This document shows, one piece after another, positions 36,832 to 44,180 of a stretch of 50,327 nucleotides of DNA (within the stretch, counting starts at the first letter, position 1; each line of letters opens with the position of its first letter). The notes beneath the pieces are model-generated. The model saw only the letters and a program-made list of their open reading frames with translations. It did not search any database and had not been told where the DNA came from. Source of the stretch: an uncultured Candidatus Saccharibacteria bacterium (GTDB lineage: Bacteria; Patescibacteriota; UBA1384; CAJBMM01); the NCBI GenBank assembly GCA_964561525.1, contig CAZLPY010000003.1, forward strand, positions 1-50,327, given 5' to 3'. Position numbers and translations under genes: made by a program.

Positions 36832-37458
36832 TTAAAATTTCCGAATCACGCCTTTGACTTTGCCTTGGACGGTCACGTTTTTAACCCGGATTGGTTTCAT
36901 GGTTTTGTTGGCTGGCTGAAGGCGGATGTGATCTTTTTCCTTATAAAACCGCTTTAGGGTCACATTTTCACGGTCAATCAGTGCCACCACAATGTCGCCA
37001 TTCCTGGCAGCGCTTGTTTGCTCTATGATCACGTAGTCACCATCAAAAATGCCATCCTCAATCATCGAGTTGCCGCGTACGCGGAGCGCAAATACCTTTG
37101 GTCCCATCATGTCACGGGGAATGTCAATGGTTTCCTGAGTCCGAATGGCTTGGATCGGTGAGCCAGCAGCGATAATGCCCATCAGTGGGGCCGCAAAGGT
37201 GCCCTCGTCCCAGGTTGGCGTCAGCTGTAATGATCGGGCCTCGTTCGCCTCACGCTTTAAATAGCCTTTACCGGAAAGCGCATCGATGTGTTCGGCGACC
37301 GTTGAGACGCTGGACAACGCAAACTCGCTTGCAATTTCGCGGTAACTTGGTGCATAGCCATTGTCCTCGATAAATTGTTCCAAATAATCCAAAATTTGGC
37401 GTTGGCGTTTGGTAAGTGGATCCACAGAAACTCCTTTTAGTCGTTTTTCATGAAACAT
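36832..37458 (-). CDS. lexA: LexA repressor
   Basis: N-terminal winged helix-turn-helix (LTKRQRQILDYLEQFIEDNGYAPSYREIA), AAG cleavage site, and S24 peptidase GNSM...K. Confidence 0.9.
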   Translation of the reverse strand: MFHEKRLKGVSVDPLTKRQRQILDYLEQFIEDNGYAPSYREIASEFALSSVSTVAEHIDALSGKGYLKREANEARSLQLTPTWDEGTFAAPLMGIIAAGSPIQAIRTQETIDIPRDMMGPKVFALRVRGNSMIEDGIFDGDYVIIEQTSAARNGDIVVALIDRENVTLKRFYKEKDHIRLQPANKTMKPIRVKNVTVQGKVKGVIRKF

Positions 37459-37566: not shown

Positions 37567-38178
37567 TTATTCGGATTTAGGACGTTTAAGCTGCCAGAGG
37601 GCGATGGCGGTTGCGGTGGCGACGTTGTAGGATTTGATTCCTCCGCGCATCGGCTCCGTTCGCGGGGTATGCAGTAGTTTCTCATGTTCATTCGAAACTA
37701 GGCTCACGTTGTTCTTCAATTGCTCGCTTACGCTCGTAATTGCTTTGTCCGCGCGAATCGTTCGTCGTAGTTGGTCATTGTTGTTCCCAACCATCGGGAT
37801 CTGCAAGTGAATATCAGCTTGGTTCAGGCCTGACTGCCCTACTCCTTCCCGCTCATGACCGACAATTAAGGCAAGCGGAAACGTTGGTTCATACTCTGAC
37901 AACGAAATAGCACTCGGAGTAATTTCAAGTGCGGCAACAGTAAAACCCTGTGTTTTAACTTGTGGGATCAGAGTTGCGAGAGAGTCCGAATATTCAAACG
38001 GCACGCGGGTTTCGGCTCCTAATGCAGTTTTGTGGATCTCCTTCCGAGGTGGCACTGGTGTAATTCCAACTAAATAGATTTTTGATACGCCCAGACCATC
38101 GGCGGTGCGAAAAATCGCCCCGACATTATATAAAGAGCGAATGTTATCGAGAATCAATACGATTTGCGTGTCGAACAT
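37567..38178 (-). CDS. SpoU/TrmH-family RNA 2'-O-methyltransferase with a 48-aa insertion
   Basis: LDNIRSLYNVGAIFRTADGLG, LIVGHEREGV, and IPM...GGIKSYNVATATAIAL. The last motif is split by 48 extra residues. Confidence 0.8.
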   Translation of the reverse strand: MFDTQIVLILDNIRSLYNVGAIFRTADGLGVSKIYLVGITPVPPRKEIHKTALGAETRVPFEYSDSLATLIPQVKTQGFTVAALEITPSAISLSEYEPTFPLALIVGHEREGVGQSGLNQADIHLQIPMVGNNNDQLRRTIRADKAITSVSEQLKNNVSLVSNEHEKLLHTPRTEPMRGGIKSYNVATATAIALWQLKRPKSE

Positions 38179-38298: not shown

Positions 38299-39582
38299 CT
38301 AATACGCTACTGCTAGGCGCTCTTGCAAGGCCGGGATGAGCTCTTCCATAAATACGTTGTCCTGTAAGCCCGAAGCCATGTCTCGCATAATGACGTGCCC
38401 GTTGACCGCTTCTTTTTGACCAATAATTAAGGTGATGCGGGCGTTCAAGCGCTCCGCTACCTGGAGCTGTTGGGTGATGCTTTCGCTTTCGCTGGCGGTC
38501 ACGACACTATAGCCTGCCCCGTATAATTGTTGTAACAAACCGACAGTTTTTGCTTTGGCATGACTGCCAAGTTGAGCCAAAAATATCTCAATTCCGTCTG
38601 TGTCGGGTAATGTAGTGTGATGCATTTCAAGGTAGCGTGAGAGGCGTGGCATATCAATAGTAATGCCAACCGCAGCTATGGGCCGGTCGGTTAATTGTGC
38701 CGCGAAACGACTAAAATGGTACCCCACAATGGCTGGGATAGATTCATCACCAACGCGTAGCGCGAATGTGGTTTGTTCAGCTTCGGGGGAAGCGATTATT
38801 AATGAGGGATCAATGTCATAGGGAATGCTGAGCTCGTCACACGCTTCAAGCATGGTTGCTAACTGAGCGTGACAGTTGGGGCACAGTTGATCAAGCAACC
38901 CGCTCACCTCAGGCAGCCAGGCCGCAGCACTATCGGTTTCGCAGGTTACCACTTGCTCTAAGGTGGGGCTCACGGCGCAAAGTGCGCAAAGCTCCGAGCG
39001 ATGTTTGAGCGCATGCTCTGCAAATTGCTGCCGAAATGATCCGCGACAGTCGATGCAGCCATTGGAGTGAATCGAGATCTCAGGCTTTTTGATGTGAAGA
39101 TCGGTGGCAATTTTTCGCAACATTACTAAAAGCGACGCACTGGTGGTCATGTCTTTGACTCCCAGACAGTCAAGACAAAAATAGTGGTTTTGCGCAAGAC
39201 CACTTGGCGTTTTTTGCACCACTGGTGTTTCATAGTACACCCGAACAGGCGGTGGCCATTCGTGCAAACCGCTTTCGAGGTAGCTTCGCATCAAGCCGAT
39301 GCGTGGATGTGCTGGCAACACATACGTATCGGAATCGCTGGTTATACCAGTGTCAAATAAATGCTCCTGCCACTGCTCGCCAAAGGCGTCCGTATACATC
39401 GATTTTGCATCAACCGCCGGCATCATAATGTGCCGATATCCGAACGATTGAGCGATATGTGAGATCAAATTATGGGCATGGTGCCAGTAGCGCAGGTTTT
39501 GGGGCATAACGTCGTACAGGCCAGCTGGGTTCTTATATTTTAGAACAATTGGTGGTGCGGCATCAAAATGGTCAGTACGCAT
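38299..39582 (-). CDS. histidyl-tRNA synthetase-like protein with degenerate catalytic motifs
   Basis: Full HisRS architecture including a Cys-rich insertion region and an anticodon-binding domain (IEIFLAQLG...ITLIIGQKEAVNGHVIMRDMASG). However, motif 2 and the RGLDYY and GGRYD peptides are replaced. Confidence 0.75.
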   Translation of the reverse strand: MRTDHFDAAPPIVLKYKNPAGLYDVMPQNLRYWHHAHNLISHIAQSFGYRHIMMPAVDAKSMYTDAFGEQWQEHLFDTGITSDSDTYVLPAHPRIGLMRSYLESGLHEWPPPVRVYYETPVVQKTPSGLAQNHYFCLDCLGVKDMTTSASLLVMLRKIATDLHIKKPEISIHSNGCIDCRGSFRQQFAEHALKHRSELCALCAVSPTLEQVVTCETDSAAAWLPEVSGLLDQLCPNCHAQLATMLEACDELSIPYDIDPSLIIASPEAEQTTFALRVGDESIPAIVGYHFSRFAAQLTDRPIAAVGITIDMPRLSRYLEMHHTTLPDTDGIEIFLAQLGSHAKAKTVGLLQQLYGAGYSVVTASESESITQQLQVAERLNARITLIIGQKEAVNGHVIMRDMASGLQDNVFMEELIPALQERLAVAY

Positions 39583-39683
39583 AGCCCCTCAATGTATGCT
39601 TGCTTAACTGAGGCAAAGTGTAGCATGTGCCATGAATTTGTCAAGGGTTCCTGGCAAATTTTCTCGCGCAAGCGCCTAAAAGC

Positions 39684-39716
39684 AAAAAAATTGGCGGAAG
39701 AGTTGCTTCTTCCGCC
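39684..39716 (-). terminator. intrinsic terminator
   Basis: 9-bp stem GGCGGAAGA/TCTTCCGCC, followed on the minus strand by AATTTTTTTGC. Confidence 0.6.
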
Positions 39717-40311: not shown

Positions 40312-42870
40312 CTAGGTAACCACGAGTTCATTATCGATATGGCGCACGACAGCGGTTTTACGTTTATCTAACCTTCCCTCAAGGATAGCATCGGCTAGTT
40401 TATCCTCAACTGCGCTTTGAATGAGGCGACGAATTGGTCGCGCGCCGTTTTTAGGGTCATAGCCATGCTCGGCGAGGTATTTGCGAGCGGCTTGATCAAC
40501 CTGCACCTTCAAACCGCGCTCCTTGGCTCGGGCGATCAACTCTTCAATATGCAAATCGACAATTTTGCGGACGTGCTCTTTGGTTAGTGGATTAAATACG
40601 ACAATGTGATCGAGGCGGTTTAAAAACTCCGGAGCAAAATGATCATGCAAGCTTTTCACCACATCATCCTTGACCAGCTGAAATGATTTGAGTGCTTGGG
40701 CTTCCTCATCTAAATTCTCAGCCTGAAATCCGAGCGTCGCTTGGCTGGTCATCTGCTCAACGCCGATGTTTGAGGTCATGATAATCAAGGCGTGGCGGAA
40801 ATCGATGCGACGACCTTTGGCATCTGTCAAAAAACCGTCTTCTAAAATTTGCAATAACATGTTGAACACGTCGGGGTGAGCTTTTTCGATTTCATCCAAC
40901 AAAATTACGCTGTAGGGGTGATGGCGGATAGTCTCACTCAATTTACCGCCTTCTTCGTAGCCGACGTAACCCGCCGGTGCACCGATCAGTCGAGAGACGT
41001 TATGCCGTTCCATAAACTCTGACATATCAATTTTGACCAAGGCACTTTCCTTACCATATACCTGACGGGCGATCACCTTAGCGAGCTCAGACTTTCCTAC
41101 TCCGGTTGGCCCAAGGAAAATAAATGATCCGGTTGGCCTGGCAGTTTGGCCGATGCCAGTGCGCGCCCGACGAATGACCCGTGCAACGGTGCCGATTGCC
41201 TCGTCCTGGCCAATCACACTTTTGCGTAGTTGTGCCTCTAATTGTTGAATTTGGGCGATGTCTTCGCTGGCCAAGGTAGCCTGTGGTATCCCAGTGAGCC
41301 GGGCGATCGTTTTTTCGATATCAATCTTGGTAATCATGATCATTTTTGCGCTTGTCGCTCGCACACTGGTTTTTTCAACCGCGCGTTTCACCACCTCTTC
41401 TTTTCGCTGCAGTTTCGAGGCATCATCATACTGCTCTTGTAGCACCGCACGCTCTTTGGCAGCACTGATTTGCTCAAGGCGTAAGCGTAGTTCCGCAAGT
41501 GTTTTTTGGTTTTTGTTGCCGGATCGCACGCGGGCCGCGGTTTCATCTATCAAGTCAATTGCTTTATCGGGTAAGTACCGATCAGTAATATAGCGGTTGC
41601 TAAGCGTTACAGCCGCTTCAATCGCCTCGTCAGTAATCTTTACTTGGTGATACTGTTCATACTGCGGGCGAATGCCTTCCAAAATGTGCACGCTATCGCC
41701 CACGGACGGTTCATTCACCACTATGGATTGGAAGCGGCGGGTTAGGGCGGCGTCACGCTCAATGTGTTTTTGGTATTCGTTTAATGTAGTAGCACCAATG
41801 ACGCGTAATTGTCCCTTGGCAAGTGACGGCTTTAGTATCTGTGCCGCGTCAAGCGAAACTTCAGCACTTCCGGCGCCGATGATGGTGTTCAGTTCATCCA
41901 TAAATAACATTGCATTGTCGAGCTTCAATAACTCGTCAATCACCTTTTTAATCCGTTCCTCAAACTGGCCACGGTACATTGTACCAGCAACCAGCAGCGC
42001 TAAATCGAGCGCCAGCAATTTTTTGCCAACTAAACTGGCCGGAACATCACCAGATACGATGCGCTGCGCAATCCCTTCGACGATAGCGGTTTTACCGACT
42101 CCCGGCTCGCCGATCAGCACCGGATTATTTTTGGTACGACGGGATAGGATTTCGATCACGCGAGTAATTTCTTGCTCACGACCGATCACTGGGTCAAGCT
42201 TGCCTTCGGCGGCCATTTTGGTTAAGTCGGTGCTGAAATAATCGAGCGCGCTGGAGCCTTTTAAGCGTCGGCGCGGCACACTACGTGATTCTGAGGGTCC
42301 AAACCCGTCACTCCCATCAATTTCATCAAGCATACGCGGCATTTCATTCTCGTCACGGGCGTCACCTTGATTTGGTCGGAATCGTGGTAGCGATTTTTCA
42401 TCACTACCAAGCGAATCAAGCTGCATTAACTCTTGAAACAGGCCAATTACTTGATTTTTGATACGCTCAGGGTCGATATTGAGGTGTCGTAGTGCAACGT
42501 ACGCACGAGATTGATTATCTGATAGCACGGCTAGCAACAGATGCTCAGTGTCAATGCCGACGTGCCCAAACTGGGCGGCGATGTTCATGGCACGATCGAG
42601 GGCGGTGCGAGTATCCTCGGCTAATGCCGGGAGCTGTGTACGTGTTTTTGGTGTTGCATCGCCTTGATGAGCTAGCTCTGACTCTATCTTTTGGGCAGTC
42701 ACATCGTAGCTTTGCAAAATGCCGTGTGCCAGCGAATCCTTATGCAGCAGCATGCCGAGTAAGACGTGGTTGGTTGTGGTTTTGGCATGTGCGTCCACCG
42801 CTAAATACTGCGCCGATGTCAGCACCCGCTTAGCATTTTCACTAAATTTATTGAAGTAACTTTCGTCCAC
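40312..42870 (-). CDS. clpC: ATP-dependent Clp protease ATP-binding subunit ClpC-like (class I AAA+)
   Basis: Clp_N repeats, two Walker A boxes ([16 protein letters not shown]) and a UVR-like middle region. GTG start with AAGGAG. Confidence 0.9.
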
Positions 42871-42935: not shown

Positions 42936-44180
42936 TTACTCCAGAGTAGGCTCATTTACAGATGCTTGGTCGTTCTTAGATTTTTTTGTAGCCTTTTTGG
43001 TGCTCGACTTAGTTTTTGACCCAGTTTTTGCCGTGGCCTTTGATTTGGCGGTTTTTTTGACCGGTGTCGCATTTTCACCGGCTTCCTCAGTCACCTCAGC
43101 AGCATGATCTTCCTGCTTCATTTCAGCTGCAGTAGCCCCGTCACCATGTTTTTCAATATCGATGTCCCAACCGGTTAGTTTGCTGGCTAGGCGCACATTT
43201 TGGCCACTGCGTCCGATCGCCAACGAAAGTTGGTCCTCCGGTACCGCTACTCGAGCTGATGACACATTTTCGTTTAATGCTACCGTAAGGACTTTGGCTG
43301 GTGACAAGGCGTTGGTAATAAACTGGATTGGGTTTTCGTCCCACAAAATGATATCAATTTTTTCCTCGCCTAGTTCAGCGAGCACTGCTTGCACGCGAAT
43401 ACCGCGCTGGCCAACACAGGATCCAACAGGGTCTAGGCCCTCTTGATTGGCTGCGACCGCTACTTTGGAGCGCGTCCCGGCCTCGCGGGCGATCGATTTA
43501 ATTTCCACTGAACCGGCGGCAATTTCCGGCACTTCAAGCTCAAACAATTTAGCCACAATTGCAGCATCGGCACGTGATACCGAAACCTGGGGGCCACGCA
43601 TGGTCTCAACTACCTCTTTCACAAATACTTTGAGGCGCTGACCAATATGATAATGCTCACCACGAATTTGCTCAGAAGGAAACATCACACCGTTAATTTT
43701 GCCGAGGTTGATGATCACGTTCTCACCCTCAATTTGCTGGACCGATCCGTTGAGCAGCGCATGCTCTTTTTGCTTAAACTCTTCGTACAGTAGCTCACGT
43801 TCAGCTTGGCGGATGCGCTGGATAATCACTTGCTTCGCGGTTTGAGCGGCGATACGGCCAAAATCACTCTCGGTAGGCAGCGGCATACTAATCTCATCGC
43901 CAACTTTAACGTCTTTTTTAAACAATTTGGCTTGCTCCACCGTCATTTCGGATTCAAGCTCCTTTAACTCTTCGTCGGCAACTACGTTGTACACGCGCTC
44001 AACTTGCATCTCATCCTGATCGGGATCAAGGTGCACGCGGATTATTTGATCGGGACGGCCAAAATCTTTACGATATGCTGCCGCTAAGGCCGCTTCAACC
44101 GTATCCATGATAATTTCTTTTGCCAGGCCTTTTTCTTCAGCGATTTGGGTGATGGCTGATACTAATTCTTTGGTTGCCAC
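42936..44180 (-). CDS. nusA: transcription termination/antitermination factor NusA
   Basis: N-terminal domain, S1 and two KH domains (GQRGIRVQAV, IGRSGQNVRLA), and a Lys-rich C-terminal tail. GTG start with AAGGAG. Confidence 0.95.
   Translation of the reverse strand: MATKELVSAITQIAEEKGLAKEIIMDTVEAALAAAYRKDFGRPDQIIRVHLDPDQDEMQVERVYNVVADEELKELESEMTVEQAKLFKKDVKVGDEISMPLPTESDFGRIAAQTAKQVIIQRIRQAERELLYEEFKQKEHALLNGSVQQIEGENVIINLGKINGVMFPSEQIRGEHYHIGQRLKVFVKEVVETMRGPQVSVSRADAAIVAKLFELEVPEIAAGSVEIKSIAREAGTRSKVAVAANQEGLDPVGSCVGQRGIRVQAVLAELGEEKIDIILWDENPIQFITNALSPAKVLTVALNENVSSARVAVPEDQLSLAIGRSGQNVRLASKLTGWDIDIEKHGDGATAAEMKQEDHAAEVTEEAGENATPVKKTAKSKATAKTGSKTKSSTKKATKKSKNDQASVNEPTLE

Follow-up and report, generated by a model that had tools for sequence, protein, structure and literature searches.

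The question raised by this locus is which non-catalytic job of an aminoacyl-tRNA synthetase merits keeping in a 1-Mb genome, a question made testable by the series of stages that one class displays. The window (the whole 50,327-nucleotide stretch that was analyzed, contig CAZLPY010000003.1 of assembly GCA_964561525.1, from an uncultured Candidatus Saccharibacteria bacterium) encodes on its minus strand, at 38299..39582, a protein that resembles histidyl-tRNA synthetase (HisRS) throughout and in which the residues of the catalytic motifs are replaced. The gene, called pseudo-HisRS here (P0001), is a complete, stop-free open reading frame (ORF) of 427 amino acids plus stop, as read from the ORF list and its translation. 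The explanation that we favor, with a probability of roughly 0.55, is that its product is a homodimeric, non-charging protein that binds tRNA-His and was kept after the enzyme had been displaced. The evidence comes from the catalytic residues, from the position of the gene in the slot of the native hisS, from purifying selection, and from a pattern of conservation that is highest in the anticodon-binding domain.

Fold, predicted dimer and catalytic residues

The initial annotation read the protein as following HisRS architecture from end to end, including an anticodon-binding domain, and on this point Pfam, TIGR00442, phmmer and AlphaFold2 agree. Pfam detects tRNA-synt_His weakly (30.4 bits, residues 21-310) and HGTP_anticodon at 36.9 bits (residues 339-422); the hisS model TIGR00442 is matched over positions 2-404 of 406, at 129.5 bits against a cut-off of 286.75 (126.2 bits in a six-frame search of the genome); and with phmmer the protein aligns to E. 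coli HisRS and, over residues 17-417, to S. aureus HisRS 1qe0 (E 3e-28). Scans with Pfam and NCBIfam returned HisRS families only, and no metal or ligand motif. The AlphaFold2 model (98-row alignment; predicted local distance difference test (pLDDT) 93.8, predicted template-modeling score (pTM) 0.87) has the three-domain fold of HisRS, with catalytic, insertion and class IIa anticodon-binding domains, and its best PDB matches by Foldseek are all HisRSs (E about 1e-31 to 1e-29, template-modeling score 0.71-0.79). On the minus strand, sequence alignments divide the former catalytic domain into an N-terminal part (residues 1-170, 39073..39582), which contains Pro55 of motif 1, a degenerate LRPEGT box and a shortened, arginine-less motif 2, and a C-terminal part (residues 255-328, 38599..38820); between them, alignment columns delimit the insertion domain with its seven invariant cysteines (residues 171-254, 38821..39072), and the anticodon-binding domain identified by HGTP_anticodon occupies residues 329-427 (38302..38598).

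Pseudo-HisRS keeps P55, the proline of motif 1, together with the N-terminal strand of the dimer interface. A homodimer model gave an interface score (ipSAE) of 0.82, compared with 0.00 for the best control, a mark attained by 20 of 30 known homodimers and by 1 of 23 monomers. At least 92% of contacts agree between runs, the partner pLDDT is at least 84, and the predicted interface comprises residues 14-27, 50-57 and 98-104. From this model we infer a homodimeric state, bearing in mind that the score may mirror likeness to known dimers only, because HisRS dimers are solved structures.

The catalytic residues had been described as replaced, on the basis of a by-eye alignment. Alignment with E. 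coli HisRS and, by MAFFT, with working HisRSs of the same class upholds each of the listed substitutions; the functions of the E. coli residues are those established from HisRS-adenylate structures. In place of the LRPEGT box (E. coli E83 and T85), pseudo-HisRS has LPAHPR (H92 and R94); the consensus in its family (P0001 and 13 relatives, see below) is RAHPR, with H92-P93 invariant. The loop of motif 2, FRYERPQ.GR.RQF, is three residues shorter and without arginine: E. coli R113 becomes Q123, R121 lies within the three-residue deletion, Q127 becomes Y134, and E131 becomes D138. The HisA box RGLDYY is replaced by IASPEA (R259 by I263, Y264 by A268), the family consensus being xxPEAE and the replacement EAEQT invariant, and the HisB box GGRYD by VGYHF (R287/Y288 by H289/F290; family consensus GYHY, GYH(F/Y)). 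Motif 3, GFAxGxER (GFAMGLER in E. coli), reads GITIDMPR, where G308 becomes D310; this second glycine of the motif is an invariant Asp310 across the family. A deletion of 10-14 residues relative to the working HisRSs of the class takes out the (D)IVxKEMY segment, which in Thermus HisRS contains Glu64, essential for aminoacylation (PMC4357726). The residues Glu114, Arg115, Arg120 and Arg122 in the Thermus motif 2 loop, which contact the acceptor end, likewise have no counterpart in pseudo-HisRS, and the lost contacts cover ATP, histidine, G-1 and the CCA end. The further statement that only the motif 3 arginine remains holds for P0001, in which R313 (E. coli R311) is present, but not for its family, in which that position is R in only 6 of 12 members (L in 3, K in 1, Q in 1, another residue in 1). 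Judged from these substitutions, pseudo-HisRS is in all probability catalytically dead, and charging of tRNA-His by it appears very unlikely.

Several of the replacing residues are themselves invariant. Going from native enzymes to the pseudo-HisRS family, E becomes H92, E becomes D138, G becomes D310, YYT[R] becomes E267/A268/E269/Q270, and G and R become Y288 and H289. The E. coli positions that match H92, D138, E267-Q270, Y288, H289 and D310 all line the histidine/ATP pocket, and the former pocket has changed from Arg-rich to His/Glu/Asp-rich.

Origin of the gene and of the working synthetase

The genome of the window (G000; 1.10 Mb in 105 contigs, 93.8% complete) contains a second HisRS, P0168 (G000:C8:23013-24293), which scores 383.8 bits with TIGR00442, has all motifs intact and belongs to another sequence type, marked by an LRYDLTVPLAR box. 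Pseudo-HisRS is not, then, the only HisRS homologue of its genome; a canonical hisS is found elsewhere, and P0168, as the only copy with intact catalytic motifs, presumably charges tRNA-His. HisZ, the HisRS-derived protein that lacks the anticodon-binding domain and works with HisG, had been judged not to fit pseudo-HisRS, and this judgment proves sound. HisZ models give 23-27 bits (TIGR00443 23.2 bits, cut-off 271.65), the anticodon-binding domain is present, and HisG (PF01634) was not found in G000 (94% complete) while the same search, run as a control, found it in 14 of 14 genomes; HisZ identity was rejected on these grounds and is ruled out in practice.

Along the minus strand of the window, the genes follow one another as NusA (42936-44180), ClpC-like ATPase (40312-42870), a small ORF, pseudo-HisRS, a SpoU-type methyltransferase and LexA (36832..37458); NusA and ClpC upstream and LexA downstream, identified by Pfam and synteny, anchor the slot of the native hisS. 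Synteny was compared in 19 genomes, namely 15 from 14 other families of the class and 4 others of the same order. In the former, a single HisRS-like gene stands at the locus, beside LexA in 15 of 15 genomes and beside ClpC and NusA in each of the 13 for which the retrieved stretch is long enough to include them; the four other members of the order carry the dead copy in the slot between ClpC and LexA. Because it sits in the same slot, the dead gene is a positional orthologue of the native hisS and not an extra paralogue. The term paralogue in the initial annotation therefore has to be given up: by synteny and by the trees, it is the working HisRS that is foreign to the locus.

Maximum-likelihood trees (quick searches, LG+C20 with posterior mean site frequencies) recover the pseudo-HisRS family as a single clade with support 100, its stem measuring 1.4-1.6 changes per site, and group it at moderate support with the native enzymes of the class. 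The working HisRSs of the order form another clade (100), separated from the pseudo-HisRS family and the natives by a branch with support of 99-100, and fall in a group (95) with enzymes labelled Chloroflexota, Planctomycetota, Myxococcota and Paceibacteria. Phylogeny thus assigns the dead family to the class natives and the working HisRS to a separate type, and pseudo-HisRS is, on the sequence evidence, very probably the displaced native orthologue. The simplest history is that the ancestor of the order gained a HisRS of foreign type, after which the native copy lost catalysis; ancient paralogy with differential loss is an alternative history that the data also allow, and the identity of the dead copy is unchanged by it.

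A survey of 162 genomes of the class (f numbers denote families) found the second HisRS type in 37. Both types are intact in one f18 genus (native 445-454 bits, second type 383-392 bits) and in three f28 genomes. Both exceed the TIGR00442 cut-off in G038 (C9:33548-34795 and C4:54382-55611), G105, G127, G131 and G137, and these five genomes may represent a redundant stage before decay of one copy. The second type is intact and the native-slot copy below the cut-off in the order of the window (5 genomes), in G032 (233 bits), in G015 (192 bits) and in G016, whose native-slot copy is not detected at E 1e-18. The native type was not found in f25, in which 18 of 19 genomes carry the second type, nor in f30. 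In the f30 genome G059 (G059:C8:10405-14252, locus L152) a second-type HisRS lies directly downstream of ClpC, in the native slot, and a native-type copy was not detected; this slot looks like an in-place replacement rather than an addition elsewhere. One class thereby shows a path from gain of a second HisRS, through a stage with both intact and a stage in which the native copy is degenerate but kept, to loss of the native gene.

From the degenerate copies in G015, G032 and G016 the same catalytic boxes are gone, by different changes, and what persists is the Cys cluster and, within the anticodon-binding domain, the GQKE...R(D/N)...Q block; these copies carry neither the EAEQT nor the HPR replacement of the order's dead family. 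Independent degeneration is favored by the facts that the partner HisRSs of the degenerate copies are polyphyletic and that the indels differ, and in the free tree G015 and G032 stand apart from the order's dead family. A single clade for all degenerate copies is, however, not rejected by an approximately unbiased (AU) test (p-AU 0.625), the constrained tree being better by 6.65 log-likelihood units, an outcome to which long-branch attraction may contribute. A ClpC tree, used as species proxy, lacks the resolution to tell the two scenarios apart, and recurrent independent degeneration in G015, G032, G016 and the order is one candidate history. An atlas contains clusters of HisRS-family proteins from the candidate phyla radiation (CPR) in which the majority of members match the model of the anticodon-binding domain alone, and these clusters are a lead that the phenomenon is widespread.

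The gene next to pseudo-HisRS (37567..38178, minus strand; Pfam SpoU_methylase, 102.5 bits) was correctly described as a TrmH-family methyltransferase; it is a generic SpoU/TrmH/RlmB-type protein, under all NCBIfam equivalog cut-offs. The adjacency is conserved, since SpoU directly follows the working hisS in three genomes of the synteny sample (G020, G007 and G019), but for that reason it is ancestral, and one member of the family has the gene turned round with respect to SpoU. A functional link to SpoU was accordingly rejected as specific evidence, the adjacency predating the loss of catalysis, and the neighbor says nothing specific about the role of the dead copy. The inverted arrangement occurs at L008 4849-6001 (contig Ga0209726_10000048, 1.04-Mb), where the gene is reversed in relation to both SpoU and ClpC, and the roughly 1.15 kb in front of it contain no called gene. 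The SpoU protein of the window has 203 amino acids, versus 153-165 in relatives; its Pfam match ends at residue 132 and the RlmB model covers residues 5-199, which fits an internal insertion.

Upstream of pseudo-HisRS, on the minus strand, a consensus scan finds a promoter-like site (39617..39644; TTGACA, 16 nt, TG-n-TACACT; 10 of 12 matches with an extended -10 TG, a pattern match), and the sequence reads a Shine-Dalgarno-like GAGGGG 2 nt before the ATG (39585..39590). A terminator-like hairpin of 9 bp, 6 of them GC, followed by a T run (39693..39716), ends the upstream small gene; because it closes that gene, pseudo-HisRS is predicted to have its own transcription start. No terminator was detected between pseudo-HisRS and SpoU, so that the two may be co-transcribed in the window. 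A hairpin mimicking the anticodon was sought in the 5' leaders and rejected: none was found, and the leader of the dead gene folds no better than shuffled sequences (z +1.1). Upstream of the working hisS on G000:C8 there is a perfect 9-bp hairpin (L001 2795-2830, minus; AATTCCACT, CCCGA loop, AGTGGAATT), about 65 nt before the likely start of that gene, a hairpin that might terminate the upstream gene or act as a leader element; it too was discarded as an anticodon mimic, its loop being CCCGA and not GUG. In G002, the match to the working HisRS (G002:C9:26068-27447) comes in two pieces within one 465-residue frame. Some 33 additional residues separate motif 2 from the insertion domain, a TGA inside the match was reported by one search, and an insertion or an assembly issue is possible.

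A changed identity of tRNA-His was considered as the cause of the enzyme switch and rejected, since identity elements are unchanged across it: tRNA-His has G-1, C73, the anticodon GUG and an encoded CCA in G004 and G003, both of the order, and the same features in three genomes that have native HisRS only. ARAGORN did not find tRNA-His in G000, nor tRNA-Met or tRNA-Lys; given that these are also undetected and that the assembly is fragmented, the missing tRNA-His is attributed to an assembly gap. G000 and G004 encode a tRNA-Ile with anticodon TAT besides tRNA-Ile(GAT), and in G004 ARAGORN reported one tRNA to which it gave no definite type (tRNA loci L074-L119).

Retention of the protein and its proposed activity

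Among 5.8 billion proteins, a word-indexed search picked out 13 relatives of pseudo-HisRS at 47-58% identity, all with open reading frames. Twelve of them have 425-428 amino acids, and the remaining one, P0009, has 482 because its start is called further upstream; all are free-standing proteins, longer fused forms lying outside this search. The next matches are ordinary HisRSs at 23-26% identity, and the same gap appears in an exhaustive HMMER search of 50%-identity representatives, where the next best match has 29% identity and 196 bits. Taking both searches together, the family stands as a cluster of its own, its next relatives lying at 26-30% identity, and it is confined to one order. With P0001 included, the ORF is intact in 14 of 14 sequences from at least five genera, 13 of them 425-428 residues long, and their alignment contains 84 invariant columns. 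The order of the window is represented by five species-level genomes in five genera; every one has the dead copy (682-718 bits with the family profile) and, besides it, an intact HisRS of the other type.

Strong purifying selection acts on pseudo-HisRS. In the closest pair for which DNA was compared (88% identical), nonsynonymous divergence (dN) is 0.069 and synonymous divergence (dS) 1.33, a dN/dS of 0.052, and the adjacent genes at the same two loci give 0.024 (LexA), 0.095 (ClpC) and 0.127 (SpoU). In five genome pairs the dead copies are 44-58% identical and the working HisRSs 46-57%, so that the dead copy evolves no faster than the essential enzyme. Almost certainly, the protein has been retained for a function. 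The constraint is unevenly distributed. Mean pairwise identity in the family is 67.8% in the anticodon-binding domain, the highest of all parts, against 42-51% in the other domains (50.7% in the C-terminal catalytic part); the reverse holds in seven working natives of the class, in which the anticodon-binding domain is the least conserved part (44% versus 48-60%).

Two retained features bear on what this function might be. The cysteine-containing insertion noted in the initial annotation is real and invariant in the family (Cys 176, 179, 199, 202, 214, 234 and 237, in the pattern GC..C, LC..C, C, LC..C), but it is not peculiar to it: the working HisRSs of the class carry the same pattern, with 8 cysteines against 7 in the dead family, and the insertion is therefore inherited. 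A putative metal cluster at the retained cysteines is plausible. In the complex of Thermus HisRS with its tRNA, G34 is recognized by Glu386-Glu388, G36 by Lys397 and the backbone of Lys399, and U35 by Gln404, and of the mutations made in the anticodon-binding domain, E388A and K397Q do the greatest damage (PMC4357726). The counterparts of E386-E388, K397, K399 and Q404 in pseudo-HisRS, mapped by spacing through a gap-free alignment with E. coli HisRS (E388 to K397, +9; K397 to Q404, +7), are Q389, K390, E391, R400, M402 and Q407; all are invariant in the 14 sequences and common to the natives of the class. The invariance of these anticodon-contact positions makes tRNA-His binding the leading hypothesis; that anticodon-specific binding of tRNA-His is the activity retained has, on this sequence evidence, about an even chance.

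The proposed course of events is as follows. The gene would be the original bacterial-type hisS of the lineage. An ancestor of the order, apparently Saccharimonadia-like, would have gained the second, LRYDLTVPLAR-type HisRS, and the native copy would then have shed the class II ATP-binding arginines, the histidine boxes and the contacts to the acceptor end and G-1. It would nonetheless have been kept as an expressed, homodimeric, HisRS-shaped protein under purifying selection, which is now strongest on the C-terminal anticodon-binding domain, where the positions matching the readers of G34, U35 and G36 are invariant. Its most likely activity would be to bind tRNA-His specifically by the anticodon, or to bind an RNA loop that imitates this tRNA, in either case without catalysis, and its role could be one of buffering, escort or sensing, either left from the ancestral enzyme or built on it.

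Several observations weigh against this explanation. As to origin, the grouping of the family with class-native enzymes has moderate support (81-87), and the case for a native origin rests mainly on synteny. As to the anticodon contacts, the Thermus numbering was carried over by spacing rather than by direct alignment to 4rdx, and the contact positions are conserved in HisRSs generally and may be kept partly for the fold. The protein has moreover lost basic residues. Mean numbers of lysine plus arginine in class-native HisRS, the dead family and the order's working HisRS are, respectively, 18.0, 7.8 and 11.6 in the anticodon-binding domain, 14.6, 5.5 and 12.6 in the insertion domain, and 10.7, 3.7 and 5.4 in the C-terminal catalytic part, and the net charge of the anticodon-binding domain is +4.9 in class natives, -2.8 in the dead family and -1.1 in the order's working HisRS. 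Such a loss is unexpected for an RNA binder, and in the anticodon-binding domain it speaks against a strong affinity for tRNA; because the order's working HisRS is equally acidic overall, and acidic in its anticodon-binding domain, the argument from acidity is weakened and not decisive, and it lessens confidence in the explanation but does not overturn it. Depletion in the insertion domain fits the loss of an acceptor-stem clamp. A dead dimer that binds the anticodon would also compete with the working HisRS for tRNA-His, which needs explaining. Finally, the invariant polar residues H92, D138, E267, E269, Q270 and D310 suggest a new ligand site rather than a relic.

This last observation leads to an explanation that we regard as unlikely although some features speak for it, namely that the pocket has been rebuilt to bind or convert a cation, a metal or a basic small molecule. 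Descent from HisRS would then be incidental to a protein working as a sensor or an enzyme, with the anticodon-binding domain used for dimer architecture or signal output. The non-native residues fixed at histidine/ATP pocket positions, the His/Glu/Asp-rich character of that pocket, and the identity still held by the C-terminal catalytic part all fit such a site; however, Pfam and NCBIfam gave no metal or ligand motif, conservation is lower in the former catalytic parts than in the anticodon-binding domain, and the convergence of the pocket side chains is a prediction from sequence. Since G015, G032 and G016 lack EAEQT and HPR, any ligand site of this kind would be specific to the order. A combination of such a site with tRNA-His binding can be imagined, though it is doubtful: a free-standing bacterial sensor or regulator of tRNA-His, in which the dead dimer reads GUG and is coupled to a rebuilt acidic ligand or metal pocket. 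If it existed, tiny-genome epibionts, in which RelA/SpoT was not found (the domain PF04607 was not found in G000, 94% complete), could monitor or buffer their tRNA-His pool.

The conserved surface of the anticodon-binding domain might instead be a protein interface, pseudo-HisRS acting as a regulator through HisZ-like contacts with the working HisRS, the ribosome or another enzyme; we give this proposal little credence. HisZ and the HisRS-like domain of Gcn2 are precedents for reuse of the scaffold, and conversion of an RNA surface into a protein surface would agree with the disappearance of basic residues, about 10 of them from the anticodon-binding domain and about 9 from the insertion. Constraint on the anticodon-binding domain, moreover, exceeds that seen in the real enzyme. 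Against these points, the HisG partner of the HisZ precedent was not found in the genome (94% complete), no new neighbor is conserved, the gene order being ancestral and the gene capable of inversion, and the base-reading positions are strictly kept.

That pseudo-HisRS is still a HisRS, or another aminoacyl-adenylate-forming enzyme with an unorthodox active site, is highly improbable. In its favor, nothing of the class II fold is missing, selection maintains the protein and R313 of motif 3 is present in P0001, but R313 is replaced in half of the family beside an invariant Asp at the second glycine, the motif 2 arginines are absent from a shortened loop, the HisA and HisB boxes are replaced, the Glu64 segment is deleted, the TIGR00442 score is 129.5 against 286.75, and an intact HisRS is present in 5 of 5 genomes of the order. 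Least credible, and close to refuted, is a functionless, redundant relic decaying on its way to loss, for although the native gene is lost in f25 and f30 and decay varies among G032, G015 and G016, the ORF is open in 14 of 14 sequences despite about 50% divergence, dN/dS is 0.05, the rate equals that of the essential HisRS, the 84 invariant columns include new residues, and a promoter-like site and a ribosome-binding site of its own precede the gene.

Comparison with known systems

Pseudo-enzymes derived from synthetases are known; a full-length bacterial HisRS in which catalysis is lost and the anticodon-binding domain tightened is undescribed in the open-access literature searched. A 2022 review of duplicated synthetases lists HisZ as the sole HisRS paralogue (PMC9437257), a large survey of prokaryotic synthetase paralogues discusses HisZ alone for HisRS, and no description of full-length dead HisRS orthologues in the CPR was found in open-access papers and preprints. 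In public records the genes of the dead family carry the label histidyl-tRNA synthetase; being mislabelled in this way, the dead copies should not be counted as a charging enzyme when translation in the CPR is inferred. Other lineages of the class retain degenerate native copies, which suggests that the imagined role as sensor or regulator of tRNA-His, if real, could be general in the CPR, and pseudo-HisRS gains in value when taken as one instance of a recurring CPR pattern.

Compared with canonical bacterial-type HisRS (TIGR00442; 1qe0, 1kmm, 4rdx), pseudo-HisRS is colinear throughout, with the same three-domain fold and the same predicted dimer; it shares the motif 1 proline, the cysteine pattern of the insertion and the anticodon-contact positions, and it occupies the same slot as the enzyme of sister families. 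It differs in lacking the residues for ATP, histidine, G-1 and CCA, in a score of less than half the cut-off, in the inverted conservation profile of its family and in the strong depletion of basic residues.

HisZ, the regulatory subunit of ATP phosphoribosyltransferase, is derived from HisRS, does not aminoacylate and is kept for a non-catalytic role (PMC9437257). Pseudo-HisRS resembles it in being HisRS-derived and non-catalytic, but has a highly conserved anticodon-binding domain, and hisG was not found in its genome. The two also point to different ancestors: HisZ resembles the LRYDLT-type HisRS by sequence (P0168 scores 216 bits with TIGR00443), whereas pseudo-HisRS derives from the LRPEGT type.

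The closest analogue of the favored explanation, in the way it would work, is the HisRS-like domain of Gcn2, a likeness that does not imply shared descent. According to one account (PMC11363354), this domain mimics the catalytic and anticodon-binding domains but lacks what is needed to form adenylate and to aminoacylate, and deacylated tRNA, acting as the signal, is its proposed ligand; the same account describes the Gcn2 anticodon-binding domain as lacking anticodon-decoding side chains and as not specific for tRNA-His. In Gcn2, a multidomain eukaryotic eIF2-alpha kinase, the domain shares one chain with kinase, pseudokinase and C-terminal domains, in contrast to pseudo-HisRS, which is free-standing and bacterial and has kept the decoding positions.

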